Of a stretch of DNA of 39,978 nt, positions 481-39,978 are shown piece by piece. The notes beneath the pieces were generated by a model. That model made no database searches and was not told where the DNA came from. It was given only the letters and a program-made list of their open reading frames with translations. A program made the position numbers and the translations under genes. The stretch's first letter is position 1. The number at the start of each line of letters is the position of its first letter. This DNA comes from Candidatus Limnocylindria bacterium (GTDB lineage: Bacteria; Chloroflexota; Limnocylindria; P2-11E): assembly GCA_044866725.1 (NCBI GenBank), contig JBIOUD010000150.1, positions 1 through 39,978 of the forward strand, read 5' to 3'.

Positions 481-1950
481 CGGGACGAGGAGCGCTCGGA
501 TCAGGCAGTCGCGGACGAAAGACGTCACGAGGGGACGGACCTCGGAGATCGGCCGTTCCATCGCCGTCGCGAAACGTTCGATCGTCGAAGCGACGGACGA
601 CTCCGCCGCGAGCAAGTCGAAGATCACCGCGCCCGCCTGCGTGAGCTCACGATCGAGCGCGACGCTCGGCGACGCGAAGCGGATCGACCGCACGTCTGCG
701 TCACGCGACGCGCCGGGCGTACGCTCGATATTCATCATCGCCCCCTCGCGTGGACGAACGCGTGCGTTCGCGATCGCGTCATCGCCGGCCTCGGCGATGT
801 CGATCCCCCGGATGAAGGCGCGCGCTTCGTCCCACCGATCGGGAAAACGCGGGACGACGAGCGACATCGTCCAGCCCTCGTACGCGGCGTCCCCCGCTGC
901 GCGCGCGATGACCATCGTGTGCGTGACCTCGTCGATGTGCTCGCGGGCAAGATGCTCGCGGTAGCGCACCGCGCTCTCGCGATAGCGCGCGCCGAAAGTG
1001 GGATCGGCGAGCGCCGCGTAGCCGAGCGCCTGGCGATCGGTGCCGAGGCCGGGCTCGCTGAACACGACGACGTCGGGTCCATCGCCGAGCGCCGTGCGGA
1101 CGCGCTCGTGGACCGCGGCACGCGGACGCACGGGCGAGTCGAACAGCGCGAGCCCGATCCCCCGCGGACGGAGGTGCTCCGGGAGTCCCTCGAGGTAGCG
1201 GAACGCGAGCTCGTCGCCCTTGGTCCCACCGTGCAGGAAGGTGACGCCCGGCTCGTCGCCCGGCCTGGTGACATACGGCGGCTGCGCGACGATCCAATCG
1301 AAGCGCTGCCCGGTGACGGGTGCGAACATGTCGCCACCGCGGATCTCGATCTGGAGCTCGTTGAAGGCCGCGTTGAAGCGCGCCAGCTCGAGCGCGCGCT
1401 CGCTGATGTCCGTCGCGACGACGCGGTCCGCGCCCCTGCGCTTCGCCACGAGCGCGATCGATCCAGGCCCCGTCCCGACATCCAGCACACTTCCGCTGAT
1501 CGGCCGCGGCACCACGGCGAGCAGGTCGCCCGTGGTCGGTCCGGGCGTCATGACGGCCTCGGCTCCCGCCGCGTGGTCGTCGCACCAGATGAAGACGCCG
1601 TCGGCCGTGACCATGCGGAACGCCGACCGCAGCGACCCGTCCTCCTCGCGGAGGATGCCCGCATCGACGAGCCACGAGCGCAGCTGCTTTCCGAGCGCGC
1701 GATCGACGACGTCGGCCGGTACAGCGACCAGATGGAGGAATAGGAGGGCGAGACCGGCGGCGGGATGTGTATCGCGCCGGAGCGCCCACTCCACGAGCGG
1801 GACGCGCAGCTCTTCGGGCATGAACGTGCCGCCCTGCGTCTCGACCGGCAACGGAGTGCGGGTGTCGAACTTCGCGGCGAGGACGCGCCCGCGAAACTCG
1901 GCCGCGCGCTCGCGCGTCATCACGCCGAGACGCGAGAGATCACCGAGCAT
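475..1950 (-). CDS. Class I SAM-dependent methyltransferase (PrmC/HemK-like QPPY motif) with long N- and C-terminal extensions
   Basis: 491-aa ORF. It has the SAM motif VLDVGTGPGSIAL, the acidic loop VVATDIS and IVAQPPY (an NPPY-type motif). The C-terminal ~60 aa resemble a PqqD/RRE-like winged helix (see findings). Confidence 0.75.
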   Translation of the reverse strand: MLGDLSRLGVMTRERAAEFRGRVLAAKFDTRTPLPVETQGGTFMPEELRVPLVEWALRRDTHPAAGLALLFLHLVAVPADVVDRALGKQLRSWLVDAGILREEDGSLRSAFRMVTADGVFIWCDDHAAGAEAVMTPGPTTGDLLAVVPRPISGSVLDVGTGPGSIALVAKRRGADRVVATDISERALELARFNAAFNELQIEIRGGDMFAPVTGQRFDWIVAQPPYVTRPGDEPGVTFLHGGTKGDELAFRYLEGLPEHLRPRGIGLALFDSPVRPRAAVHERVRTALGDGPDVVVFSEPGLGTDRQALGYAALADPTFGARYRESAVRYREHLAREHIDEVTHTMVIARAAGDAAYEGWTMSLVVPRFPDRWDEARAFIRGIDIAEAGDDAIANARVRPREGAMMNIERTPGASRDADVRSIRFASPSVALDRELTQAGAVIFDLLAAESSVASTIERFATAMERPISEVRPLVTSFVRDCLIRALLVPD

Positions 1951-2033
1951 CGAAACTCCTTTGCTCAGTTGGCGACAGGTCGACCATGCGCTACGTTAGC
2001 CGTCGCCGTCGGGGGACGGAGGAGGTGGGATAG

Positions 2034-2783
2034 ATGGACAGCGCACGACCGGATCGTGACGCGCTCGAGATGGAGCTCGCGGAGCTCCGCACAAAGCTGA
2101 AGACGCAGGGGGATGAGCTCGACGCGCTTCGCGCGCAGCTCGCTCCGGCGAGCGGGCCGACGCGCCGCGATCTGCTCCGCGCAGGCGGACTCGTCGGGGC
2201 GGGTCTCGCGGCGCTCACGGTGGCGGGGGTCGCGGGCGCGACGCCGCAGCCTGCGGCTGCCATCGAAGGTCACAACCTTCGGATGAGGGGTGGCCTGTTC
2301 ATCTACCTCACGCTCAAGGGTCAGAAGCAGGGCGACATCAAGGGAAGCGTCACGCAAAAGGGTCGGGAGAACTCGATCCAGGTGCAGTACCTCCAGAGCA
2401 AGATCGTGAGCCCGCGTGATGCCGCGTCCGGCCTGCCGACGGGCAAGCGCCAGCACGAGCCGCTCGTGTGGCGGAAGACCGTCGACAAGAGCACCCCGCT
2501 CCTCCTGAGCGCGCTCGTGAACAACGAGAACATCACCGAGGCCCACTTCAAGTTCTGGAAGCCGTCGCTGACGGGTGCGGAGACCCAGTACTTCACGATC
2601 GATCTCACCAACGCGAGCCTGGCAAGCTCCGACCTGTACCACCCGGACTCCTTCGACTCGACGGCCCCGTCCGCCGGCTCGAGCGACCTCGAGGAATGGT
2701 CGTTCACGTACCAGAAGATCAGATGGACCTTCACCGACGGCGGCATCACTGCCGAGGACGACTGGGAGTCGCCGGTCGTCTAG
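2034..2783 (+). CDS. Hcp/TssD-family (T6SS tube fold) protein with an N-terminal coiled-coil-like segment and a twin-arginine signal
   Basis: A strong SD (ggaggaggtggg, 2018-2029) precedes ATG 2034. The Tat-like signal is TRRDLLRAGGLVGAGLAALTVAGVAGA-T. Residues ~86-249 follow the Hcp pattern (GLPTGKRQHEPLVWRKTVDKSTPLLLSALVNNENITEAHFKFWKP...ETQYFTIDLTNASL...WSFTYQKIRWTFTDGGITAEDDW). The alternative internal start ATG 2283 would give a signal-less 166-aa Hcp. In the 83 upstream codons, 66 end in G/C by my count, which supports the long form. Confidence 0.8.
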   Translation: MDSARPDRDALEMELAELRTKLKTQGDELDALRAQLAPASGPTRRDLLRAGGLVGAGLAALTVAGVAGATPQPAAAIEGHNLRMRGGLFIYLTLKGQKQGDIKGSVTQKGRENSIQVQYLQSKIVSPRDAASGLPTGKRQHEPLVWRKTVDKSTPLLLSALVNNENITEAHFKFWKPSLTGAETQYFTIDLTNASLASSDLYHPDSFDSTAPSAGSSDLEEWSFTYQKIRWTFTDGGITAEDDWESPVV

Positions 2784-2820
2784 CCCGCGCCTTTTCGTGA
2801 CAGTTCGCAATGGGTGGAAG

Positions 2821-5800
2821 GTGAGGGCTCTCGTCCTGAAGATCGGTACGCGCGCGCAACAGAGAGGCATCGCGGCGATCGTCGTCGCGTTCCTCATCGT
2901 CGGCATCGCCGTCGCTCCGGCGGAGTCGGCCGCGGCGACGCGCAACCGCGGGTACTGGATCGCTGGACAGAACGCCCAGGTCTTCGCCTTCGGCGACGGC
3001 TCCGTCCATCCGCAGATCGACCTCCGTCTCGTGCGCGCCCAGATCGTCGACATGGCTGCGCATCCGGATGGGCGAGGCTACTGGCTCCTCGGCCAGGACG
3101 GCGCTGTGTACCCGCACGGCGACGCGCGCGACTTCGGTCAGGGCGGCTTGAGCGATCAGAGCGCGGTCGCGATCGCGTCGACACCGACCGGCGACGGCTA
3201 CTACATCGCGAGCGACAAGGGCGGCGTGAAGGCCTTCGGCGATGCGGTGGACCGCGGTTCGCTGGACAAGAAGGACCTGAGGAAGAGGATCGTCGACATC
3301 GCGGTCACGCCGAGCGGCAACGGCTACTGGCTCGTGGACGAGAGCGGACACATGAATGTCTTTGGCGACGCCGGCCTTTTCGGCTCCCTCGACGGGAAGA
3401 AGATCGTCGCGATGGCCTCGACGCCAAGCGGCAATGGCTACTGGCTCGTCGACGACGGCGGGCAGGTGTGGACCTTCGGTGGCGCGTTCGTGCTGGGCTC
3501 CCTCAACGACCCCGCCAAGAAGGTCGTGGACATCACACCGACGCACACCGGCCGCGGCTACTGGATCGTCGACCGCGACGGTCTCGTGTTCGCATTCGGC
3601 GACGCCGTGCACTACGGCGAGCTCGCGACGGGCGACCTGAAGAATGGGCTCATCGTCGCGATCGTCTCGACGCCGTTCGTGAACCGCGCCCCGGTGGCGA
3701 CCACGGACAGCGTCGCGCTCGACGAGGACATGACGATCGACGTCGACGTGCTTGCGAACGACACCGATGAGGACGGCGATCCGCTCACCGCGACCGTGCT
3801 GACGCAGCCGGCGCACGGGGCCGCGACGCTGAACGGGGACGGCACGATCCGCTACGCGCCGGCGCAGGACTACAACGGCCCCGATTCCTTCACGTACACG
3901 GTCAGCGACCCGTTCGGCGGTAGCGCTGTCGGCACGGTCCACGTCACGGTGCGGCCGGTGAACGACGCGCCCGTTGCGACGGATGACACGTTCTCGACCG
4001 ACGAGGACGCGCCGCTCACGGGGTCGCTCGTCGCGAACGACACCGATGTCGACGGCGACCCGCTCACCGCCGTCCTCGAGACGCTTCCGGCACACGGAGG
4101 CGTCGTGCTCGGCACCGGTGGGGCATTCACTTACACGCCGGGGCCGGACTTCAACGGCGATGACTCATTCAGCTACCGCGCGTCGGACGGACTGCTCACG
4201 TCGAACATCGCGACCGTGCGCATTCACGTGAATCCGGTGAACGACGCACCGGTCGCTCAGCCTGACACCGCGTCGCTCGACGAGGACACCACGCTCACCG
4301 TGACGCCCCCGGGCGTCCTCTCGAACGACAGTGACGTCGATGGGGACGCGCTGCACGCCGTGCTCGCGAGCGGCGCGTCCCACGGCTCGCTCACGCTCGC
4401 GCCGAACGGCGGCTACACGTACACGCCGAACGCGAACTACAACGGCGCCGACGCGTTCACGTACCGCGCGAGCGACGGCGCGCTCGACTCGGGCAACGTG
4501 ACGGTCGCGCTCACGATCCGGCCGGTGAACGACGTGCCCGTCGCGGCGCTCGACACCTACAACGTCACCGAGGACACGGCGCTCGTTGTCGGCGCTCCCG
4601 GCGTCCTTGCGAACGACACCGACGTCGACGGCGACCCGCTGGCCGCCGAGCTCGTGACCGCCCCGACGCACGGCACGCTCACGCTCATGCCCGACGGCAG
4701 CTTCAGCTACGTGCCCGCGGCGAACTTCAACGGGACCGACGTGTTCGTCTACCGCGCGCGGGACGCCGTCTCCGCGTCGGCCGCCACGGCTGCCACGATC
4801 CACGTCGCGGCCGTGAACGACCCACCCGACACGACGGACGACGAGTACCGTGCGCTCGAGGAGACGACGCTCACTGTGGCCGCGCCCGGCGTGCTCGCGA
4901 ACGACAACGACGTCGACAGCCCGACGATGACGGCCACCCTCGGCACCGGTCCGGCGCACGGCGACCTCACGTTCGCGTCGGACGGGTCTTTCGAGTACGT
5001 GCCCGATGCGAACTTCTCCGGCACAGACACATTCACGTACGTCGCGACGGACGGCCTTCGCGCTTCGCGCGAGACCACGGTCGTCATCCTCGTCCAGGGC
5101 GTGAACGATGCTCCTGCGGCGCTGCCCGACGCGTACACGACGGATGAGGACACGTTGCTGCTCGTGGGTGCGCCCGGTGTCATGACGAACGACTCCGACC
5201 CGGACGGCGACACGCTCACCGTCCGACTGGCGGACCGGCCGCTCCACGGTGATGTCGCGCTGCTGCCCGACGGGACGCTCGAGTACATGCCCGACGCGAA
5301 CTTCAACGGCACCGACAGCTTCACGTACGACCTCAGCGATGGCGACGAGACGGTGTTCGGCACGACCGTGACGATCACGGTGACGGCGGTGACGGACCCT
5401 CCGACGGCGAGCGACGACTCATATGCGACGCGGGTCGGCGAGACGCTGTCGGTCGCGGCGCCCGGCGTGCTGGTGAACGACTTCAGCGACGGCGGCGACC
5501 TCACCGCGATCCTGGTGACGGGCCCGGCGCACGGGACGCTGACGCTGAACGGCAGCGGTTCCTTCACGTACACGACGAACCTGGCCGCGGCCGGAAGCGA
5601 CTCGTTCACCTACAAGGTCACCGATGGCGTGGCCGAGTCCGCGCCCGCGACGGTGCACGTCTCAGTGAGCGCGCAGAGTGGCGGTGGTGGCGGTGGCGGC
5701 GGGACGTTCGGCGGGTACGCGCAGCCGACGCTCGTCGTGTGGGACTTCGACAGCTTGAAGCTCGGTGGTGCCGGTGACCTCAAGACGAAGAAGGGCCAGG

Positions 5801-25121: not shown

Positions 25122-27458
25122 CTATCCCGCCGCGGCGGGGACCGGCTCGGCCGCGAGTGGCAAGCGGATCGTGAACGTGCTGCCGCGCCCCTCAGCGCTC
25201 GTGACATCCACGCTCCCGCGATGCTGCTCGACGACCTGCCGAACGATGGCTAGGCCGACCCCACTCCCGGCGATGCGACCGGCGACGTTCGCGCCGCGCG
25301 TGAAGCGCTCGAAGATGCGCGCGCGGTCCGTCTCGGGGATGCCGATGCCCTCGTCGATGACATCGATGACCGCGGTGTCCCCGTGCTCGACACCGACGCG
25401 GACGCGCACCTTGCCATCGGGGCGGTTGTACTTGATCGCGTTGCCGACGAGGTTCGAGAGGGCGCGCTCGAGACGCGAGCGGTCCCACTCGCCGACGACC
25501 GGCCCATCAGCTTCGACCGAGAGCACCTGACCATGCGCGAGCTGCACCGACTCGGCCACGACCGTGCGCGCGAGGTCGACGAGGTCGAACCGCGTCGGCC
25601 GCACGCCGACGCTCGGATCGGCCTGGCGGCGTACGAGTTCCAGCAGCTCCTCGATGAAGGCGGTCATGCGAGCGACCGAGCCAAGGATCCTCGTGATGGC
25701 CGGCTCCGGCGAAGACTGTCCGTCCTCGCGCTGCTGCTTGCGCTGGACCATCTGAGCGGACGCGCTGATCACCGTGAGCGGCGTCTTCAACTCGTGCGCG
25801 ACCGCCGAGAGGAAGTCATCGCGCGTCCGCACGGACTGCTGCACTTCGTAGAAGAGACGCGCGTTCTCGACCGAGAGCGCGATCCGGCGCGCAAGCTGCT
25901 TCGCGAGGTCGAAGTCCTCCTCGGTGAAGTGGCGTCCAGACCCTGATGTCAGGAACGTGACCGCGCCAAGGATCCGGTCACCGACGAGGAGCGGCATCGC
26001 GATGAACGATCGCGGGCCGAGCTTGCGGTAGAGCTCCAGCTCGTCAGGATGGCGCGCGACGCCGGCGAGGAACTCATCGCTGATCCGGGTCATGAGCACG
26101 GGCGCGCCGCTCGTGATGGCCCGCGCGATCGGGCCGTGCGACTCCGCCGATGGCTGGGACGGCGGGAACCGCTCGTGGAGCTCGCGCGCGAGGTGCTCGA
26201 GCGCCGGGTCGGCCGTCGCGACCGCGGCGCGCGCGAGGACGCCTCCCTCCATGACGTCGACGACGCACCAGTCCGCGAACCCGGGCACGGCGACGCGAGA
26301 CGCGCGACGAAGGCTGTCCGCGTAATCGAGCGACGACGAGAGCGAGTCACCCGCGGCTGCGAGCAACCGGAGCTCGTCCTCGCGCCGGGCGACCGCACTC
26401 TGCATGGTGCGCATCGCCGTCGCGAGCCGTTCGACCTCGACTCCCCCGCCCTCGGACGTCGGGATCATCGGGCGCTCGCCGCGCGCGATCCCCGACGCGA
26501 CCTCGGAGAGCTCGAGGAGCGGGCGCGCGAGCCGCGTCGCGATGAAAGTCGCGATGAGGCCTGCCGCCGTGAGCGCCGCGATGACCGCGATGACGTCCGA
26601 CAGCAGCCGTGATGCGAGCTCAGCGTCAAGACCCGCGACCGGGCGCGCGATCGACATGACCCAGCCGGCTCGCGCGATGGGCACGAGCGCACCGAACTGC
26701 GGATCGCCGCCGAACGGCGTCGCGACGCCGTCGATCGGCACCGTCTTGCCGGCGAGCGCGTCCTTCACGCCGGGCGCGGCCGACACGTCGATCTCAGAGG
26801 TCGCCGGCTCTTTGCGCCCGGAGTCGTACACGACTCGCCCCGTTTCATCGATGAGGGCCAGACGCGCATCGGGCGGGTAGTCGGGCCGCAGGACTTCGAT
26901 GACCTTCTCGGGGTAGAAGGCGGTGACGACGTAGCCACGCGTCTGGCCGCTTGCGTTGCGGATCGGCTCGCCGAAGGCGACGGTGATCGCGGCGGACTGG
27001 AGCCCGGTGATCGACCCGCTCCACACCTTTGGCGCTCCTGACTTGAGCGCGACCATATACGGCCGGCTCGAGAGGTCGACGCCGACGCCCTCGCCGGTCC
27101 CGGTCGCGACGACCTTTCCCGATGTGTCGGTGATGAAGTACGCGCGGATCTCGGGGTACTGCTTCATCACGGAGCTCAGGAATTGGCCGAACGTCGCCTG
27201 GTCCAACGGCTGCGTCGATGCTCCGAGGAGGCCGGCGATCGCGAACGTCGAGTTCTCGAGGTCGCGAAGGAAGCTCTCGACGATCGCGGCGCCGTCGCGC
27301 GCGGCCGTCGTCGTGGACGCCGCCTCCGCGGCACGACGGTCGCGGAGCTGGTCGTTGTACGACAGCGCGACGACGACGACCAGCGGCAGCGCAAGCGCGC
27401 CGACGAGGATGATCAAGCGCTGCGCAAGCGTCAGCGGTCGGCGCAGGAGCGAACGCAT
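25122..27458 (-). CDS. Sensor histidine kinase (TM - Cache-like - TM - HAMP - GAF - HisKA - HATPase)
   Basis: The H-box is FLSAVAHELKTPL, the N-box is LVGNAIKYN, G1 is DEGIGI and G2 is GSGVGLAIV. The N-terminal TM is followed by an extracellular region of about 250 aa. Confidence 0.9.
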   Translation of the reverse strand: MRSLLRRPLTLAQRLIILVGALALPLVVVVALSYNDQLRDRRAAEAASTTTAARDGAAIVESFLRDLENSTFAIAGLLGASTQPLDQATFGQFLSSVMKQYPEIRAYFITDTSGKVVATGTGEGVGVDLSSRPYMVALKSGAPKVWSGSITGLQSAAITVAFGEPIRNASGQTRGYVVTAFYPEKVIEVLRPDYPPDARLALIDETGRVVYDSGRKEPATSEIDVSAAPGVKDALAGKTVPIDGVATPFGGDPQFGALVPIARAGWVMSIARPVAGLDAELASRLLSDVIAVIAALTAAGLIATFIATRLARPLLELSEVASGIARGERPMIPTSEGGGVEVERLATAMRTMQSAVARREDELRLLAAAGDSLSSSLDYADSLRRASRVAVPGFADWCVVDVMEGGVLARAAVATADPALEHLARELHERFPPSQPSAESHGPIARAITSGAPVLMTRISDEFLAGVARHPDELELYRKLGPRSFIAMPLLVGDRILGAVTFLTSGSGRHFTEEDFDLAKQLARRIALSVENARLFYEVQQSVRTRDDFLSAVAHELKTPLTVISASAQMVQRKQQREDGQSSPEPAITRILGSVARMTAFIEELLELVRRQADPSVGVRPTRFDLVDLARTVVAESVQLAHGQVLSVEADGPVVGEWDRSRLERALSNLVGNAIKYNRPDGKVRVRVGVEHGDTAVIDVIDEGIGIPETDRARIFERFTRGANVAGRIAGSGVGLAIVRQVVEQHRGSVDVTSAEGRGSTFTIRLPLAAEPVPAAAG

Positions 27459-27533
27459 CTCGACTCATTCTGCGGGCAGGCGCCGTAAAGAACGAGAGAG
27501 CTCGGTTGGTCCGCCGCTCGTTATCCTCGGCGC

Positions 27534-27908
27534 GTGCCGACTGGCCCGACACGACGTGTCCTCGTCGTAGACGATGAGCCACAGGTGCGCGCGACCGTGC
27601 GTGAAGCGCTCGCGCTGGAAGGCTATGAAGTCACGGAGGCGAGCAACGGAGCGGAGGCGCTCGCGCTGCTGCAAACGGCGCAGCCCGAGGCCATCGTCCT
27701 CGACCTCTGGATGCCGGTGATGGATGGCTGGACTTTCCGGCGCGCGCAGCTCGCGTCGCATCCGCAGATCCCGGTGATCGTCGTCTCCGCGCTCGACCTC
27801 TCGAGCGAACGTGTCGAAGAGTTGCGCGCCAGCGCGATCATCGGTAAGCCGTTCGACCTCGACACGCTCTACGCGGCCGTGGAGGACGTCCTCAAGAAAC
27901 GGGCCTAG
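27534..27908 (+). CDS. Single-domain CheY-like response regulator
   Basis: Motifs seen: VLVVDDE, LDLWMPVMDG and IIGKPF. There is no output domain. It is divergent from the kinase. Confidence 0.9.
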   Translation: MPTGPTRRVLVVDDEPQVRATVREALALEGYEVTEASNGAEALALLQTAQPEAIVLDLWMPVMDGWTFRRAQLASHPQIPVIVVSALDLSSERVEELRASAIIGKPFDLDTLYAAVEDVLKKRA

Positions 27909-28567
27909 CGCGCCGCGCGCGCGATGAGCATGCCGGCCTGGCGCGTGACCGGTAGAGCGAAGTCGAAGCGGTCGACCTGGCAGGCGAGCTCCGCATCACG
28001 CCGAGGGAACCAGTCGGGCCAGCCGCTCGCGAGGTGGTCGCCCGGTAGATAGATCGGCGGGATCACCGGTCGCTCACCTCGCATCAGGCCGGCGATGTAG
28101 TCAGCGCACGCGACGTCCTCGTTCCGTCCCGCATCGTTCGGACCCATCGCGACGATGGCCACCTCATCCGCGACGCCCGCGAGGTAGCGAGCCGTCGCGC
28201 CAGCGATCACGAGCGAGCCGAGCAGGATCGCGCGGGCGTTACTCGCGGCGACGACGCCCTGAGTGCCGGAGCTCGTCCGCTGGACGACGCGTCGGCCGCT
28301 GAGATCGAGCCGCTCGATGACCGACGGCGAGTTGCCCACGTCGAAGCCGGGGATGGGCTTGCCCTCGATCTCGCCGCTGAGGAAGAGCGACGCGTCGCCC
28401 TGTTTCATACGCAGCGCCTCCTCGTGGTCCGCGAGGAGCACGATCTCGCGCGCGCCGGCGGCAACGCAGAACGCCGCGGTCGTGAACGCGCGGAACACGT
28501 CGACGATGACGGCGTGCCCTTTCGCGTCCCGCGCACCCTCAAGACCGAGCGCGACGTGGACGTTCAA
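27905..28567 (-). CDS. 2-phosphosulfolactate phosphatase (ComB) family protein
   Basis: AVIVDVFRAFTTAA and VQRTSSGTQG are typical of the ComB family. The TTG start forms a TTGA overlap with the permease stop. Confidence 0.72.
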   Translation of the reverse strand: MNVHVALGLEGARDAKGHAVIVDVFRAFTTAAFCVAAGAREIVLLADHEEALRMKQGDASLFLSGEIEGKPIPGFDVGNSPSVIERLDLSGRRVVQRTSSGTQGVVAASNARAILLGSLVIAGATARYLAGVADEVAIVAMGPNDAGRNEDVACADYIAGLMRGERPVIPPIYLPGDHLASGWPDWFPRRDAELACQVDRFDFALPVTRQAGMLIARAAR

Positions 28568-30555
28568 CGCGTGCGCGTGACCTGGCCCGTCGCGAGGTCA
28601 TAGCGAAACGACGCGAACGCCGCCGCCGGCGCCTGTGGGGTCGTCGCGAGCTGCACGTAGTCGACACGAACGGACGGCGCGGCGTCGTTCATGACGAAGG
28701 CGTTCGCGGTCCACGCGGCATTTCCGGCCCGTGCCCAGCCGTCACGCACTTCGCGACCGCCGCCCCGCTCGACGACCTGGAAGGCGGCGGCGATGTCGAA
28801 CGCCTCGGGGAGCGCAGGTGGACGCGCGGAGATCTGGCCGACGTTCACGACCGTCTGAGTGCCGACGGAGACGTTCACCGAACGTCGGTCGTCTTGATCC
28901 AATCGTACGAAGCTGAACGACATCGACACCGGGCGATCCGCACCGAAGCCGGTCGAGAGAGGCGGCGCTTGTGCACGCCAGATCGCATTCGCACCGGTGA
29001 CCATCACGGGCCCGTTGAGCGCCGTCCGGGCCTGGATCCGAGCGAGCCCGAACAGATGCGCCTGTGCCGGCGGCGCGCCCGTGTTCGCGTCGATCGCCGC
29101 ATCGATCGTCGGTTGGCCCACGATCGAGCCGCTCGTGTAGAGAGCGCGGTACAGCGGGATGCCGAGCTCCGGCTCCTGCGTAAGCACGACCCGGACAAGC
29201 CACGTGCGCGTGTTGCTCCGAAAACCGCCACCGCCGACCCGCTCGGCACTCGCCAGCGCGTCCTGCCACGTCGCCTTCCACTCACCGAGCGGAGTGTCCC
29301 CGAGGATGAGTCCGTCCTCCTCGTCGCGCTTCGTCTCCATCGCGTTCTGGTCCCCGTCGGGGAACCCGACGCGGACGTAGGCCGTAACGCCGCTCGACTT
29401 GAAGTAGAAGTTGTACTTCTCCGGCCGCTCGAGCGCGTGCGAGTCGGAGCGCAGGCGCACGACCGCCGCAACGAGCGGTGCGCCGGGCTCGACCTTCGCG
29501 ACGGACTCACGCGCGAGGCGCAACGCGTCGTCGAAAGCCAGCGAGGTCGCGCGCGCCTGGCTCACGCCGAAGAACACTCCACTCGCGATCGCGACGGCGG
29601 CGAGGCTCCGGCCGAGCAGCCCAAGGCCCCGTGGCGAGAGCGAGAGACGCGAGAACGGGTCGGTGGCGTTGCGCACGCCCTCGCCCAGGAGGTTGAAGAC
29701 GAACACCGCGGCGCAGACGACGACCCCGGGGACGAACGCGACGTACTGGTTGCTGAAGGCGTACTGCTGCGCTCCGGCGAGCATCTGTCCCCACTCGGGC
29801 GCGCGGTCGCGTGCGGGAAGGATCGGCCGGTTCTGCGCGTCGACGAGGAACGCGCCGCCGGACATGAATACGCCGAGGAATCCGAGCTCGGCGAGAAGCA
29901 GAAGGGTCGAACCGGCCTCGAGCGAAAAGAGGCCGAAGAGCTGCGGAGCGAGGCCGCGAAGGACGTGACGCCGGAGCAGACCCGACGTTCGGGCGCCGAG
30001 CGCTCGCGCGGCTTCGACATATCCCGTCGCGCGGATGCGCACGACTTCGCTGCGCACGAACTGCGCACCCTCGGCCCAGCCGACGAGACCGAGCGCGAGC
30101 GTGAACCCGAGGACCGCGTGCTCCCGCAAGGCGACGGCGATGAGCAGGGCAAGGAGAAATTGAGGGATTCCCCCAACGGCGTTCGTGATCGTCGCGAGGC
30201 CACGGTCGACGACGCCACCGAACCATCCGCCGAGGACGCCAACGACGATCGCGAGCGACGCACGAATGAACAGCGCAAGCAGCACGACGGTGAAAGTGAG
30301 GCGGGCGCCGTAGAGAACGCGCGCGAGCTGATCGCGCCCGAGCGGGTCGGTGCCGAGGGGGTACCACTGATCAGGCGGCGAAGGCGGCACCGCGAACTTG
30401 CCGTCCGGGAAGAAGAGGACGATGCGTTGCGCGTTCGGGTCCCCGGCGGCGAGCTGCGGCCCGAACAGCGCGACCACCGCGAGCGCAAGTGCTCCAACAA
30501 GCCCGGCGACGAGCGCCGGGTTCGCGATGACTCGACGGAGGTCGTCGCGCGTCAT
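28564..30555 (-). CDS. DppC/OppC-type ABC permease fused to an extra TM helix and a ~330-aa C-terminal extracytoplasmic domain
   Basis: The permease core runs to residue 300 (PLGTDPLGRDQLARVLYGARL...FNLLGEGVRNATDP). It is followed by the TM LGLLGRSLAAVAIASGVFFGV and 332 further residues. I trimmed the 841-aa track ORF to ATG 30555, which forms an ATGA overlap. Confidence 0.8.
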   Translation of the reverse strand: MTRDDLRRVIANPALVAGLVGALALAVVALFGPQLAAGDPNAQRIVLFFPDGKFAVPPSPPDQWYPLGTDPLGRDQLARVLYGARLTFTVVLLALFIRASLAIVVGVLGGWFGGVVDRGLATITNAVGGIPQFLLALLIAVALREHAVLGFTLALGLVGWAEGAQFVRSEVVRIRATGYVEAARALGARTSGLLRRHVLRGLAPQLFGLFSLEAGSTLLLLAELGFLGVFMSGGAFLVDAQNRPILPARDRAPEWGQMLAGAQQYAFSNQYVAFVPGVVVCAAVFVFNLLGEGVRNATDPFSRLSLSPRGLGLLGRSLAAVAIASGVFFGVSQARATSLAFDDALRLARESVAKVEPGAPLVAAVVRLRSDSHALERPEKYNFYFKSSGVTAYVRVGFPDGDQNAMETKRDEEDGLILGDTPLGEWKATWQDALASAERVGGGGFRSNTRTWLVRVVLTQEPELGIPLYRALYTSGSIVGQPTIDAAIDANTGAPPAQAHLFGLARIQARTALNGPVMVTGANAIWRAQAPPLSTGFGADRPVSMSFSFVRLDQDDRRSVNVSVGTQTVVNVGQISARPPALPEAFDIAAAFQVVERGGGREVRDGWARAGNAAWTANAFVMNDAAPSVRVDYVQLATTPQAPAAAFASFRYDLATGQVTRTR

Positions 30556-31379
30556 CTCGCGGTCACCGCGATCGCGCGGGACGCGGCGGTGATGGCGAGG
30601 CCGAGGAGCGACGTCGTGAGTGCAAAGACCACGGCGGTGAGCGTCGCGAACGGGATGTCGCCCTTCGCGAGCGCGAGCACGAACCCGTAGCCCGCCCCGT
30701 TCCACGTGAACATGTACTCGACGATCGCGAGCGATGACAGGCTCGTCTTCGCGCCGAGCGCCAGGCCCGCCAGGATGGCTGGCGCGGCATTGCGCATCAC
30801 GTGGCGCGTCGCGATGAGGAGCGGACCGAGGCCCTTCGCGAGCGCGGTCACGACGTGCGGTGCGTGCTGCGCCTCGTCGAGCGCGGTCGCGGTGGTGCGG
30901 AACACGTATGCCGCAGGCCGCATCGCGAGCGCGATCGCCGGCAGGATGATGTGCGCGTCGAGCCCAAAGCCGCCGGACACCGGCGCGATGAGCTTCTGCG
31001 TCCGCAAGTACACGAACACGACGACGAGCTGCAGAAGCAGCGCCCAGAAGAAGGACGGCAGCGACGCGCCGACGGTGCCGACGGTCCACGCCGCGGCGCG
31101 GATGGAGCGCCGGCCCGTGAACGCGTACGCGACCCCGGCGAGGAGGCCGATCGCGATAGCGGCCGCGAGCGCGGCGGCGAGCAGGATCGCGCTCCGGCTC
31201 ACCGCCGTCCAGAGCGCCTCGGGGAGCGAGAGCCCGCGGAACGGCTCGCGGCCGACGAGGAGCAGGCCGAGGGTGAGATCGGTGAGCGGGGCGGCGTGGA
31301 TGCTCGCGTCAGTCAGCCAGACGATGAGGAGGACCGTGAGGAGGGTCGACGCGGTCCCGATGAGCAGGCGGCGGCGCAT
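30552..31379 (-). CDS. DppB/OppB-type ABC permease
   Basis: The sequence is MRRRLLIGTASTLLTVLLIV...ASLPSFFWALLLQLVVVF...VVTALAKGLG. I trimmed the track ORF to ATG 31379. Confidence 0.8.
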   Translation of the reverse strand: MRRRLLIGTASTLLTVLLIVWLTDASIHAAPLTDLTLGLLLVGREPFRGLSLPEALWTAVSRSAILLAAALAAAIAIGLLAGVAYAFTGRRSIRAAAWTVGTVGASLPSFFWALLLQLVVVFVYLRTQKLIAPVSGGFGLDAHIILPAIALAMRPAAYVFRTTATALDEAQHAPHVVTALAKGLGPLLIATRHVMRNAAPAILAGLALGAKTSLSSLAIVEYMFTWNGAGYGFVLALAKGDIPFATLTAVVFALTTSLLGLAITAASRAIAVTAR

Positions 31380-31387
31380 CGTCGTCT

Positions 31388-32569
31388 CTAGAGCACGGTC
31401 GCGGTGAACGGTCTGCGGCCCGTCTGGAACCGCTCGAGCGAGAGATCGGAGATGTCGAGCGCGCGCGCCTTTCCGTCGAGCATCTCCTCGACGATCAGGC
31501 GCGCGGTCGCCGGCGTGTGCATGAAGCCGTGCCCGCTGAATCCCGCCGCGATGTACAGGCCTTCGACGCCAGGCACCGCACCGACGATCGGGTGGTCGTC
31601 TGGCGTCATCTCGTAGTAGCAGGACCACGACGAGCGGATCTCCAGATCCGCGAACGCGGGGTGGCGCCACGCGGCGCGCGCCTTCACCCAGGGCTCCAGC
31701 GCTTGCGGCACCTCGAGCGGGGTGTACTCGCCGGGGTACGCCTTCGGCGGCGCACTCGGACCTTTCTCGATAGACCCGTCAGCGGTCAGGTTGGGCATCG
31801 CAAAACGGACCTGATTGGCTCTTGGGCGGAAGTGGAAGCCCGACTCCCACTCGATCGTCATCGGCGAACGGGAGAGCTGTGGGATCGGCTGCGACTCCAT
31901 GATCGAGCGCGCGTACGGCCAGATCGGCACGGTCACACCGGCCGTCGCCGCGAGCGGCGCGGTCCAGCACCCGGTCGCGAGGAGGACGCGATCCGCCGCG
32001 AGGACACCCTCGTCCGTCCGTACACCCGTCACGCGGTCGCCGTTCCGCACGACCTCGCGCACCGTGACCCCCTCGCGGATCTTCACGCCGCCGAGCGTCG
32101 CGAACGCGGCGAAGCCGGCGAGCGCCTGCAGCGGGTCGCCGTAGCCGTCCTCCGCGCCGAAGCGCCCTCCGGTGACGTCGTCGACGCGCATGCCCGGGAC
32201 GAGCTCGGCGATCTGGATGCGATCGACCATCTCGACATTCACGCCGACGCTCTCGTAGAGCGGCATCGGCTCGCGCAGCTGCGCGAGGCCCTCCTCGGTG
32301 TTCGCGATGAACAGGTAGCCGCGCTGACGGAAGTCGTGGCGCGCGGCGGTGAGGTCGTCGAAAGATCGCCAGAACGCGATCGCGAGCTTCGACATGCGGA
32401 CGTCCAGCTCGTCGACGAACTGCGTCCGGATGCCGCCAAGGCCGCCACGGCTCGTGCCGCTCCCGAGTTCGCCGCGCTCGAGCAGCGTGACGTCGGGCTC
32501 GCGCCGCTCCGCGAGGAAGTACGCGACCGCGGCGCCCACGACCCCGCCGCCGACGATGATCGTGCTCAC
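31388..32569 (-). CDS. FAD-dependent oxidoreductase (DAO / sarcosine-oxidase-beta-like)
   Basis: The dinucleotide fold is STIIVGGGVVGAAVAYFLA and the C-terminus has GFSGHGFMHTPA. GTG 32569 forms a GTGA overlap with the MBL gene stop. Confidence 0.85.
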   Translation of the reverse strand: MSTIIVGGGVVGAAVAYFLAERREPDVTLLERGELGSGTSRGGLGGIRTQFVDELDVRMSKLAIAFWRSFDDLTAARHDFRQRGYLFIANTEEGLAQLREPMPLYESVGVNVEMVDRIQIAELVPGMRVDDVTGGRFGAEDGYGDPLQALAGFAAFATLGGVKIREGVTVREVVRNGDRVTGVRTDEGVLAADRVLLATGCWTAPLAATAGVTVPIWPYARSIMESQPIPQLSRSPMTIEWESGFHFRPRANQVRFAMPNLTADGSIEKGPSAPPKAYPGEYTPLEVPQALEPWVKARAAWRHPAFADLEIRSSWSCYYEMTPDDHPIVGAVPGVEGLYIAAGFSGHGFMHTPATARLIVEEMLDGKARALDISDLSLERFQTGRRPFTATVL

Positions 32570-33396
32570 TCGATCTCCGTGAACCGGTAGCGGCCCTCTT
32601 CCTCCGTGATCCTGCCGAACCGAGGCACGTCGTGCGTGAAGGCGACGGCCCACTTCTCCTGGATCGCGCGCGGGAGGATGACCTTCTTCGCGGCGAGCGA
32701 ATCCAACGGGAAGAGGTCCTGCGACGGGATCCATGGAAGCGGCAGGTGGTGACGGTCGGGCATGAAGTCGGAGGAGAAGAAGAGCGTGTCTCGGCCGTCG
32801 GAGACGCGCACGGTCTGCGTCCCGCGGGTGTGACCCTGGATGCGGTCGAGGCGGATACCGGGCACGATCTCGACGGCCTCGTCAATGAGCTCGAGCTTCC
32901 CGGTCTCCTCGAGCGGCGCGAAGTCGTCGGGCAGGTACGAGGCACGCGTGCGCTCGTTCGGGCTGATCGCGTCGAGCCACTCGAGCCGCTGGAACACGTA
33001 GCTCGCGCGCGGGAACGTCGCGACGACGCGGTCGGACGCGCGATGGGTGTTCCCGCCGGCGTGATCGAAGTGGAGATGCGTATTGATGACGAGCGTGACC
33101 TCGTCGGGCCGCACGCCGCGCCGCGCGAGCTCGCCCAGCAGGCGCGGCGGCTCGTCGACGCCGAAGTTGCGCTTCTGCTTCTCGTTCAGCTTCGGGCCGG
33201 CGCCGGTCTCGACGAGAACGACGTTCGTCCCGTCGCGGATGAGCAGGCAGTTCATGTCCATCGCGACGCGGTTCAGCTCATCCGCGGGCTTCTGCTTCTC
33301 CCACAGCACCTTCGGCACGACGCCGAACATCGCGCCGCCGTCAAGGCGGAAGATGCCGTCGCTGAAGATCTCCACCTGGAAGCGCCCGATGCGCAC
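32566..33396 (-). CDS. MBL-fold metallo-hydrolase
   Basis: The metal motif is NTHLHFDHAGG, with downstream His/Asp ligands. GTG start. Confidence 0.85.
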   Translation of the reverse strand: MRIGRFQVEIFSDGIFRLDGGAMFGVVPKVLWEKQKPADELNRVAMDMNCLLIRDGTNVVLVETGAGPKLNEKQKRNFGVDEPPRLLGELARRGVRPDEVTLVINTHLHFDHAGGNTHRASDRVVATFPRASYVFQRLEWLDAISPNERTRASYLPDDFAPLEETGKLELIDEAVEIVPGIRLDRIQGHTRGTQTVRVSDGRDTLFFSSDFMPDRHHLPLPWIPSQDLFPLDSLAAKKVILPRAIQEKWAVAFTHDVPRFGRITEEEGRYRFTEIE

Positions 33397-38434: not shown

Positions 38435-39321
38435 CCGCTCCTCCGGAGCCGAGGGTCGAGCGCGTCGCGCAGGGCGTCGCCGAGGAAGTTGAAGGCGAAC
38501 ACCGCGGTGAAGATCGCGATCCCGGGCCCGACGCTCATCCACCACTTCAGGTTCGGCAGGTAGCGCTGCGAGTAGTTGATGTCCTGTCCCCACGACGGCT
38601 CCGGCGGCTGCGCGCCAAGGCCGAGGAACGACAGGGCCGCTTCGGCGAGGATCGCGAAGGCCGTCGAAAGCGTCGCCTGCACGATGAGTGCGTTCATGAC
38701 GTTCGGGAAGATGTGGCGCAGCACGATGCGCAGCGGCGTCGCGCCGATGGTGCGCGCCGCGACGATGTATTCGCGAGCGCGCACCGCGAGCACCTGCCCG
38801 CGCGTGAGGCGCGCGTACGCGGGGATGGCGACGATGCCGATCGCGATCATCGCGTTCTCGATCTTCGGCCCGAGCGCTGAGGTGATGCCGATCGCGAGGA
38901 TGAGCGCGGGGAACGCGAGGAGCGCGTCGATGCCGCGCATGACGATGAGGTCCCACTTCCCGCCGAGGTAACCGGCGGCGAGACCGAGGGACGTGCCGAC
39001 GATGAGGCCGATCGACACGCTGATCGCGCCGACCCACAGTGAGATGCGCGCGCCCCAGATCACGCGCGAGAGGACGTCGCGACCGAGGTCGTCGGTGCCG
39101 AGCCAGTGCTGCGGTCCCGGCGGGATGAGCGCGCTCAGCACGTCGACCTTCTTCGGGTCGTACGGCGCGACGAACGGCGCGAAGATCGCGGCGAAGACCC
39201 AGGCGAGGATGATCGCACCGCCCACGATCATGCGCGGGTTGCGGCGCAGGAAGTACAGCGCCGAGCCGAGGCGATCGTCGCGCGTCCGGCCGAGCGCGAG
39301 CGGGACGGTCGCGCCCGCCAT
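38431..39321 (-). CDS. DppC/OppC-type ABC permease
   Basis: Motifs seen: HWLGTDDLGRDVLSRVIWGARISL and FNFLGDALRDALDPR. I trimmed the track ORF to ATG 39321, which forms a TGATG overlap. Confidence 0.85.
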   Translation of the reverse strand: MAGATVPLALGRTRDDRLGSALYFLRRNPRMIVGGAIILAWVFAAIFAPFVAPYDPKKVDVLSALIPPGPQHWLGTDDLGRDVLSRVIWGARISLWVGAISVSIGLIVGTSLGLAAGYLGGKWDLIVMRGIDALLAFPALILAIGITSALGPKIENAMIAIGIVAIPAYARLTRGQVLAVRAREYIVAARTIGATPLRIVLRHIFPNVMNALIVQATLSTAFAILAEAALSFLGLGAQPPEPSWGQDINYSQRYLPNLKWWMSVGPGIAIFTAVFAFNFLGDALRDALDPRLRRSG

Positions 39322-39978
39322 CAGGCCGTCACCGATTCGTACGAGATGCGCGGGTCGAGCCACGCATACAGGACGTCCACGAGCAGCGTGCTGAGCATGA
39401 ACGAGAGCGCGGACACGAGCACGACGCCCTGCACGACGGGGTAGTCGTGCGACGGGATCGCCTGCACGGCGAGCCGTCCCACGCCGGGCCACGAGAAGAT
39501 CGTCTCCGTGATCACGGCGCCTTCGATGATCGCCCCGATCTGGATGCCGATGAGCGTGACGACGGGGATGAGCGCGTTCTTCAGCGCGTGCCGCATGATG
39601 ACGACCCGCTCGCGAAGGCCCTTCGCGCGTGCGGTGCGCATGTACTCGTGGCCAAAGACCTCGAGCAGGCTCGAGCGCACCTGACGCAGGTTCAGCGCGA
39701 GGCTGGCCGTCGCGAGCGTCACCGCCGGCAGCACGAGGCGCCGGAGGTTCTCGCCGACGTCCTGTGTGATGGGCACGTAGCCGCCCGGCGGGAAGATGCG
39801 TCCGGGTATGACGTAGGCGAACAGGAGGATGAGGACGACGCCGAGGAAGAACGACGGGAACGACACGCCCATGAGCGTGATGCTCGTCGACAACAGGTCG
39901 ATCACGGAGTTGCGCTTGACCGCGGAGAGGATGCCGATGACGAGCGCGAGAGTGATCGAGATGGTCAGCGCCGCGAGC
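39321..39978 (-). CDS. DppB/OppB-type ABC permease (C-terminal part, runs off window end)
   Basis: The frame stays open beyond the track start. My translation upstream of 39905 gives LAALTISITLALVIGILSAVKRNS, then VIDLLSTSITLMGVSFPSFFLGVVLILLFAY...EYMRTARAKGL. Confidence 0.85.
   Translation of the reverse strand, partial: LAALTISITLALVIGILSAVKRNSVIDLLSTSITLMGVSFPSFFLGVVLILLFAYVIPGRIFPPGGYVPITQDVGENLRRLVLPAVTLATASLALNLRQVRSSLLEVFGHEYMRTARAKGLRERVVIMRHALKNALIPVVTLIGIQIGAIIEGAVITETIFSWPGVGRLAVQAIPSHDYPVVQGVVLVSALSFMLSTLLVDVLYAWLDPRISYESVTA

Follow-up and report, generated by a model that had tools for sequence, protein, structure and literature searches.

A DppC-type ABC permease of a soil Limnocylindria bacterium extended by a seventh transmembrane helix and a four-module tail of probably external location

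The stretch of DNA analysed here, referred to as the window, comprises 39,978 nucleotides of contig JBIOUD010000150.1 from a Candidatus Limnocylindria bacterium, a soil member of the Chloroflexota (assembly GCA_044866725.1; 2.46 Mb, 74% complete). It encodes P0001, a protein of 663 amino acids (aa) in which a DppC-type permease domain of the peptide/nickel (PepT) family of ATP-binding cassette (ABC) importers is followed by a seventh transmembrane helix (TM7) and a tail of about 330 residues. On balance, P0001 appears to be a C-type importer subunit, encoded in a single frame, whose tail would be exposed outside the membrane as a tethered receptor or adaptor, and which would operate without a substrate-binding protein (SBP) of its own and with borrowed ATPases. 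An earlier note on this DNA, made from the sequence alone, had described the protein as one gene consisting of these three parts; the open reading frame (ORF), Pfam matches, hydropathy, and structure prediction with AlphaFold2 (AF2) all agree with this description.

Reading frame and permease domain

According to the ORF list and its translation, P0001 is a single ORF of 663 codons plus stop (28564-30555, minus strand). Its ATG start lies in an ATGA (30552-30555) shared with the stop of the upstream DppB-like gene, and its stop lies in a TTGA (28564-28567) shared with the TTG start of the downstream ComB-like gene. The GC content of third codon positions (GC3) stays between 0.78 and 0.93 in one frame across the permease part, TM7, and all modules of the tail. 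With residues 305-663 as query, 87 protein clusters from JGI, ENA, NCBI, and Logan assemblies were retrieved, which share 41-83% identity in the tail and whose full-length members have 647-672 aa and the same architecture. The named members belong to metagenome-assembled genomes of Candidatus Limnocylindria or Chloroflexota and are annotated merely as "ABC transporter permease". The permease part as query led to 280 clusters, the best 120 of which have the architecture of P0001; among these 120, the search for other long architectures yielded the same orthologous group alone. A frameshift or an assembly error at the join of permease and tail, which the earlier note had named as a possible objection, is ruled out, because the architecture is conserved across independent assemblies and the coding signal is unbroken.

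Residues 1-300 carry the signatures of canonical PepT permeases. BPD_transp_1 (Pfam) matches residues 102-298 with an E-value of 1.8e-17 and 64.1 bits against a cut-off of 26.4, and OppC_N, which is also detected in several homologues, matches residues 4-43 with 23.4 bits, slightly below its cut-off of 23.9. Judged by its sequence, P0001 is a C-type permease of the peptide/nickel family to which no substrate class can be assigned, since it reaches none of the NCBIfam equivalog cut-offs (NikC, DppC, OppC, GsiD, CntC, and others). All scores are far below these cut-offs, and the top matches, NikC and Opp2C, have E-values of 1e-44 and 153 bits in comparison to cut-offs of 358 and 300, respectively. 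In Foldseek searches, the permease part matched chains of Escherichia coli DppC and of Mycobacterium tuberculosis OppC/DppC, including 8Z1Y_B, 8J5T_C, and 8WD9_C, with E-values of 1.6e-11 to 3e-9 and target-normalised TM-scores (template modelling scores) of 0.69-0.84. P0001 thus shares the DppC/OppC fold of the canonical importers DppBCDF/OppBCDF from E. coli and OppABCD/DppABCD from M. tuberculosis (PDB 8Z1V-8Z21, 8J5Q-8J5T, 8WD9-8WDB), and like these it has an EAA coupling loop and a DppB-type partner. The loop, YVEAARALG...H..R.L.P, spans residues 179-204 (Y179, G187, H197, R200, L202, P204); of its residues, A182, A183, G187, H197, R200, L202, and P204 do not vary among 78 sequences. P0001 is a bona fide membrane subunit of an ABC importer with an intact ATPase-coupling loop.

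The permease domain is closed by FNLLGEGVRNATDP (residues 287-300). The end at residue 300, which had been proposed from this motif, is further supported by the limit of BPD_transp_1 and by the NCBIfam alignments (NikC, Opp2C/4C, GsiD, DppC, OppC, CntC), all of which end at residue 297-302. Canonical DppC proteins, which use a free binding protein of the SBP_bac_5 family, end a few residues after the motif ...G(D/E)G(L/V)R(D/N)A.DP, and the normal DppC genes in the genome of P0001 stop 2-6 residues past its equivalent. In contrast, P0001 continues with TM7 and the tail.

Seventh transmembrane helix and topology

A conserved linker, DPFS.LSLSPR (DPFSRLSLSPR in P0001), leads to the hydrophobic segment LGLLGRSLAAVAIASGVFFGV (residues 311-331), for which a Kyte-Doolittle peak of 1.79 was calculated at residues 313-331 and for which AF2 predicts a helix at residues 308-327. 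Beyond this segment P0001 has 332 residues, in agreement with the helix and the tail length that the earlier note had read from the sequence.

In solved complexes the C-terminus of DppC and OppC is cytoplasmic. As TM7 adds one more membrane pass, it would carry the tail to the outside. The net charge in 78 sequences is +1.3 in the 19 residues ahead of TM7 and -0.6 in the 19 residues behind it. M28 enzymes with a PA domain are in most cases secreted or located at the surface, and a paralogue with the same helix carries PA and M28 domains in place of the tail (see below). From the topology of DppC, the charge bias, this paralogue, distant tail relatives that are secreted by the type IX secretion system, and a fold match to a viral lipoprotein (see below), we infer that an outside location, as had been suggested in the earlier note, is the best-supported topology.

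Directly after TM7, the conserved sequence A334-R335-(A/S)336-T337 (residues 332-337, window 29545-29562) forms an AxA-like motif that is a possible type I signal-peptidase site. This motif is not present in the paralogues on contigs C39 and C233.

Fold and conservation of the tail

AF2 predictions were made with family alignments of 78-83 sequences. For residues 333-663 alone, a mean predicted local distance difference test (pLDDT) of 92.2 and a predicted TM-score (pTM) of 0.86 were obtained, in comparison to 75 and 0.52, respectively, for the full-length protein. The predicted tail consists of four modules, each with a long helix followed by 3-4 strands: M1 (residues 341-409), M2 (430-489), M3 (498-574), and M4 (588-661). 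Their helices coincide with the four openings from which the earlier note had deduced four sub-modules (Table 1). M2 and M4 are related (hhalign probability 87%, E-value 4e-6), and M1-M2 is collinear with M3-M4 over 101 columns (hhalign E-value 2.8e-4), while the likeness of M1 and M3 is limited to the order of helix and strands. Together with the existence of permeases having only M1-M2, this points to an origin of the tail by tandem duplication of a two-module unit.

Conservation drops with distance from the membrane. Mean pairwise identity within the family is 80% for the permease, 72% for linker plus TM7, 74% for M1, 53% for M2, 47% for M3, and 46.5% for M4. M1, which begins about 10 residues after TM7, shows the highest conservation within the tail and carries nearly all of its invariant polar residues; the invariant positions are H373, K380, N382-F-Y-F, R395-V-G-F-P-D, D402, Q-N404-A-M-E407, D411, and E413-D414-G. 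This pattern suggests that M1 is fixed to the transporter on its external face or that it contains a functional site, possibly for a metal or a ligand, and that M2-M4 are exposed and free to diverge.

The polar motif of M1, H..L..P.K.NFYF......RVGFPD.DQNAME (residues 370-407, window 29335-29448), contains a D-x-D-x-N element that recalls calcium-binding loops. In the C39 paralogue, the polar motif is missing.

Similarity of the tail to known domains

The tail of P0001 has no match to any family in Pfam or NCBIfam, and in Pfam none even at E-values up to 10. Likewise, neither its single sequence nor a profile matched PDB sequences at E-values up to 0.001. A Foldseek search of the tail alone against the PDB gave a best E-value of 0.01 with TM-scores below 0.2 and returned noise such as MHC-I/CD1-like platforms, porins, clamps, and propellers. 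A common, already described permease accessory domain, which the earlier note had wanted to see excluded, was rejected in view of these empty searches. In the viral structure library BFVD, the sole match to a two-module stretch was a phage lipoprotein of 158 aa (E-value 1.7e-3, target TM-score 0.58). The tail defines a new and very narrowly distributed alpha/beta repeat module whose fold is confidently predicted and has nothing alike in the PDB.

The analogy to fused binding domains that the earlier note had drawn from polar amino-acid and osmoprotectant importers was not borne out in the sense of GlnPQ or OpuA. Neither the Pfam SBP families, nor PDB searches by sequence and profile, nor Foldseek revealed any signal of an SBP or of a periplasmic binding protein (PBP) in the tail, leaving an SBP-like fused receptor without sequence or fold support.

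The resemblance to PepSY domains (PF03413), which had also been suggested, is weakly supported. PepSY domains, known from propeptides of peptidase family M4, YpeB, and PepSY_TM proteins, resemble the tail modules in their size of about 60-80 aa, in the order of a helix followed by 3-4 strands that is predicted for the tail, in an extracytoplasmic setting that is probable for it, and in a terminal ..D(A).TG.V motif, with which the endings of M2 (IDAAIDANTG) and M4 (FRYDLATGQV) are in agreement. In 6 of 12 diverse homologous tails, PepSY matches were found, all of them on M2 and all below the gathering score of 24 bits; the best one reached 19.7 bits (E-value 0.0011) and covered positions 2-55 of the 60 profile positions. 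A weak match was also found in one distant secreted multi-repeat protein. These matches and the kinship of M4 to M2 make "PepSY-like" a plausible clue to the fold of M2 and M4, short of family membership. For M1 and M3, only the predicted order of secondary structure elements, which fits the PepSY pattern in all four modules, speaks for such a resemblance. The tail of P0001 itself has no PepSY match, no member of the tail family reaches the gathering score, and no PepSY structure is among the top Foldseek matches. A link to peptidases of family M4 or to canonical PepSY proteins of the same genome was discarded, as neither were found in this assembly, which is 74% complete.

Distribution and distant relatives of the tail

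In a class-wide sample of 201 genomes, the tail was found in 18 of the 66 genomes from the GTDB family of the window and in none of the 134 genomes from four other families. The tail is rare, as a search of 1.84 billion representative proteins with a profile built from eight tails gave only 64 matches at E-values up to 0.001. The matches that are neither orthologues nor fragments fall into three groups. The first comprises permeases of 500-517 aa with modules 1-2 only, and the second permeases of about 660 aa in which modules 1-2 are followed by a different domain, one of them being the C39 paralogue. The third group consists of secreted proteins of 700-1475 aa with 4-7 module copies, most of which have a terminal sorting domain for type IX secretion. 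In this third group, P0122, P0124, P0125, P0131-P0134, and P0139 have 700-1270 aa, contain 4-5 tandem copies of the two-module unit, and end in Por_Secre_tail or FlgD_ig. Their repeats are not annotated by Pfam and form an unnamed secreted repeat family.

The permease operon

P0001 is the fourth gene of an operon with tight junctions throughout, in which genes for an MBL-fold (metallo-beta-lactamase-fold) hydrolase, a DAO-family flavoprotein, and a short DppB-like permease precede it and a gene for a ComB-like phosphatase follows (Table 1).

Table 1. Features of P0001 and of its operon in the window
Feature	Position	Strand	Basis
Whole gene P0001: DppC/NikC-type permease, TM7, and tail of probably external location	28564..30555	-	ORF, translation; architecture repeated in homologue clusters
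PepT-family C-type ABC permease domain, residues 1-300 (OppC_N helix, 6 TM, EAA loop 179-204)	29656..30555	-	Pfam, NCBIfam, Foldseek
Seventh transmembrane helix, residues ~308-331	29563..29634	-	Hydropathy, AF2 helix, 72% mean pairwise identity
Module 1, residues 338-412, predicted helix + 4 strands	29320..29544	-	AF2 H341-355, E361-370, E380-386, E393-399, E407-409
Module 2, residues 426-492, predicted helix + 3 strands, end IDAAIDANTG	29080..29280	-	AF2 H430-448, E452-461, E466-475, E484-489
Module 3, residues 494-578, predicted helix + 4 strands, fast-evolving	28822..29076	-	AF2 H498-513, E517-527, E544-551, E558-564, E569-574
Module 4, residues 584-663, predicted helix + 4 strands, end FRYDLATGQV, fast-evolving	28567..28806	-	AF2 H588-609, E615-623, E627-635, E647-653, E659-661
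MBL-fold hydrolase (YtnP-like lactonase family), first operon gene	32566..33396	-	Pfam Lactamase_B E 7e-17; NCBIfam YtnP E 5e-61, below cut-off
FAD-dependent oxidoreductase, DAO family (sarcosine/glycine/D-amino-acid oxidase-like)	31388..32569	-	Pfam DAO E 1e-63
Partner permease, short DppB-like, 275 aa, BPD_transp_1 only	30552..31379	-	Pfam; ATGA junction
ComB-like 2-phosphosulfolactate phosphatase family protein, TTG start	27905..28567	-	Pfam 2-ph_phosp E 2e-38; junction

This order is kept in the homologous loci L003, L030, L031, and L033, where the DAO gene likewise lies upstream of the permease pair, while L029 lacks the flavoprotein gene. The ComB-like gene is syntenic in all of these five loci, and the MBL-fold gene is syntenic in five of the six loci with sufficient flanks. 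In L001, the permease pair is found in another setting, without the DAO gene and beside two further extended permease pairs. Proteins of the syntenic loci share 40-48% identity with the window in the tail, 71-79% in the permease part, and 63-87% in the neighbouring enzymes.

The DppB partners of extended DppC proteins are short, with 275 aa in the window and 276-283 aa in L002, L003, and L028; the partners in two gene calls of L001 have 301-326 aa. A canonical DppB in L003 has 320 aa including BPD_transp_1_N (PF19300), a region that the short partner of P0001 does not have.

Unlike canonical PepT systems, P0001 has neither an SBP gene nor an ATPase gene nearby. No SBP_bac_5 and no Dpp-type ATPase gene is present in the operon or on the contig, where only an unrelated FecCD-type system was found; the absence of a binding-protein gene from the operon, as stated in the earlier note, thus extends to the whole contig. 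There is also no SBP gene within the flanks of L001 and L029-L033 and no Dpp-type ATPase gene nearby in the loci. An exception is L003, in which a canonical SBP-DppB-DppC operon precedes the extended pair by several kb; this operon is partly visible in L029 and L033.

The same canonical operon recurs at the right end of the window, where its DppB/DppC pair on the minus strand (38437-39974) is cut by the contig end, and its SBP would therefore lie outside the window. Its distance upstream, in conserved synteny, is about 5 kb. At 25122-27908, the operon is followed by two regulatory genes, one on the minus strand for a histidine kinase and one on the plus strand for a response regulator. L031 and L033 have both genes in this position, and L029 has the regulator alone. 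As neither of them is present in L003 and L030, their link to the permease operon is loose.

Extended DppC permeases in the same genome

The genome of P0001 encodes about 11 DppB/C pairs versus two DppD/F pairs (contigs C213 and C99), and borrowed ATPases are therefore the rule in this genome. It also contains 11 SBP_bac_5 genes, none of which lies beside P0001. All six DppC genes of normal length are found beside an SBP gene (contigs C36, C66, C99, C105, C117, and C213). In contrast, none of the four extended DppC genes with a seventh helix and a long tail (contigs C150, which carries P0001, C39, C118, and C233) has SBP_bac_5 on its contig. Extended tails and adjacent SBP genes are thus mutually exclusive in one genome, a suggestive pattern among 4 versus 6 genes, some of them on short contigs and not independent of each other by kinship. 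Three SBP_bac_5 genes are orphans (contigs C111, C77, and C91).

The extended architecture is accordingly not unique to P0001, and in one of the three further cases the tail is a peptidase. On contig C233 (locus L034, 4438-6816, minus strand), a DppC-type permease of 793 aa with a seventh TM helix carries a PA domain (E-value 3.6e-4) and a Peptidase_M28 domain (E-value 5e-34), the latter with intact HxD, DNASG, EEEG, NLDM, and SDH zinc-ligand motifs. It resembles P0001 in having a permease part, an extra TM helix, a large domain that would be external, a short partner DppB, and an operon free of SBP and ATPase genes, and it stems from the same lineage. It differs in that its tail is recognisable as PA plus Peptidase_M28 and is conserved at 56-86%, whereas the tail of P0001 is a repeat of non-enzymatic appearance that evolves faster (41-83%). 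This permease-M28 architecture (PF00528 plus PF04389) is found in more than 100 clusters from Limnocylindria/Chloroflexota, which at NCBI are named only "M28 family peptidase".

On contig C39 (locus L028, 3950-6780 and 1465-3600), a short DppB of 283 aa is encoded with an extended DppC of 661 aa, whose tail consists of modules 1-2 at 31% identity and a Cys-rich domain of about 180 aa, which is unrelated and has no Pfam match. A gene for an M13 (neprilysin-type) peptidase adjoins this pair in divergent orientation. A third type of extended DppC, with about 810 aa and a tail of about 500 aa, is represented on contig C118 (locus L035, about 1459-3924) and in L001 (12096-14522); here, the DppB partner is encoded downstream and not upstream. 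Its tail has only a weak PA match (E-value 0.0077) and looks like a degenerate PA/M28-like domain. Its assignment as a PA-M28 fusion, considered for the protein of 809 aa, was dropped given this PA match and the lack of any M28 match.

Proposed function and alternative explanations

In the mechanism proposed here, a C-type membrane subunit of the PepT family would have gained a seventh TM helix that carries 330 residues to the outside of a single membrane. The external part would be a rigid assembly of four helix-plus-sheet modules, derived from a duplicated two-module unit and distantly PepSY-like. M1, about 10 residues from the membrane, most likely packs on external loops of the DppB/DppC pair, and M2-M4 would be exposed. 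The extended DppC would pair with a shortened DppB and would be energised by shared DppD/F-type ATPases encoded elsewhere, which are required because the EAA loop is intact and the operon has no ATPase gene of its own. As a tethered external receptor or adaptor, the tail would capture the substrate at the mouth of the transporter or keep a producing or delivering partner protein there, and would thus do the job of a free binding protein or modify the need for it. In sister permeases of the same genome, an M28 aminopeptidase occupies the same position as the tail. A possible cargo is a small nitrogenous compound on which the hydrolase, the flavin oxidase, and the phosphatase act; these co-transcribed enzymes give a weak hint at such a substrate rather than at bulk peptides.

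Several observations weigh against a receptor or adaptor function. The tail has neither the fold nor the sequence signal of a PBP, and the charge is biased only modestly around TM7. The position of the tail relative to the pore cannot be read from the full-length model with its low pTM. The enzymes are not universal neighbours, as the DAO gene is missing in L029 and all of them are missing in L001. In addition, the genome is incomplete and several contigs are short, and a free binding protein could still serve the pair of P0001, because there are orphan SBP genes and a canonical Dpp operon in conserved synteny.

A wider version of the receptor hypothesis can be put forward only tentatively and is doubtful at present. 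It states that Limnocylindria possess a class of binding-protein-independent ABC importers of the peptide family, in which a non-PBP domain, joined to DppC by the seventh helix, captures or generates the substrate directly over the pore and triggers shared ATPases. This domain would be the four-module PepSY-like receptor in P0001 and an M28 aminopeptidase or another domain in its paralogues.

It is unlikely that the tail instead is a platform on which a peptidase, either secreted or at the surface, docks or is regulated in the manner of classical PepSY domains, and that it thereby places proteolysis beside uptake without binding the transported substrate. The sub-threshold PepSY similarity of M2 would fit such a platform, as would the PA-M28 aminopeptidase in the same position in sister permeases and the C39 paralogue, which shares modules 1-2 and lies divergently beside the M13 endopeptidase gene. 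However, no canonical PepSY protein or family M4 peptidase was found in the genome at its 74% completeness, the tail of P0001 itself lacks any PepSY match, no peptidase gene occurs in the operon or in its syntenic copies, and the operon enzymes point to small-molecule catabolism and not to proteolysis.

A purely structural tail, anchoring the permease to the wall or S-layer or mediating oligomerisation while free SBPs from elsewhere select the substrate, is less probable still. M2-M4 diverge fast like surface-exposed scaffolds, related modules are repeated in large secreted proteins, and orphan SBP genes are available in the genome. Nevertheless, the strict complementarity of extended tails and adjacent SBP genes in this genome argues against a mere anchor, and the highly conserved polar motif of M1 (H, D, D, N, E) would suit a functional site better than a spacer.

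Slightly more doubtful again is the possibility that TM7 is an internal signal sequence and that the tail is cut off at A-R-(A/S)/T to act as a free or wall-associated binding or accessory protein. The residues A334, R335, and T337 of the AxA-like site are invariant or nearly so, and the AF2 model has its lowest confidence in the linker of residues 330-337. However, a hydrophobic stretch of about 20 residues is typical of a membrane anchor and not of a cleavable signal, the C39 and C233 paralogues have no such motif after TM7, and the near-permease conservation of M1 suggests a fixed contact.

An artefact, either by a frameshift or assembly join or in the form of a cytoplasmic tail, is suggested by the unusual length alone and is hardly credible in view of the recurrence of architecture and length in the 87 tail clusters and the best 120 of the 280 permease clusters from independent assemblies, the continuous coding signal, the conserved TM7, the confident AF2 fold of the tail from the family alignment, and the secreted relatives of its modules.

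Comparison to known importers and significance

Tethering of a receptor to a type I importer subunit has precedents in GlnPQ and OpuA from Lactococcus lactis, in which PBP-fold substrate-binding domains are fused to the permease of amino-acid and osmoprotectant transporters (PMC8025302, PMC7673798). P0001 resembles these systems in its tethered domain, for which an outside location is likewise probable, in the single membrane of the organism, and in the lack of an SBP gene in the operon. In contrast, its tail is not a PBP-fold substrate-binding domain, and its transporter belongs to the peptide/nickel family. The literature searched contains no description of a Dpp/Opp permease with this fusion, in accordance with the earlier note, nor of PepSY- or peptidase-fused ABC permeases or of this Limnocylindria gene. 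To our knowledge, fused receptors are restricted to the amino-acid and osmoprotectant importer families.

P0001 represents an ABC importer subunit with a new, narrowly distributed domain of probably external location. It is one of a set of extended DppC permeases specific to its lineage and appears in databases simply as a permease. The extended DppC design is conserved in one bacterial family and may take the place of the separate binding protein that is usual. According to the current view, type I ABC importers need a binding protein with PBP fold, whether free or fused, and a binding-protein-independent function, if true, would be a new way of feeding such an importer. Should the tails take over or re-route the binding-protein step, the possible ways of organising the delivery of substrates to ABC importers would have to be seen differently, and the nutrient scavenging of soil Chloroflexota, which are abundant and uncultured, would become easier to approach.

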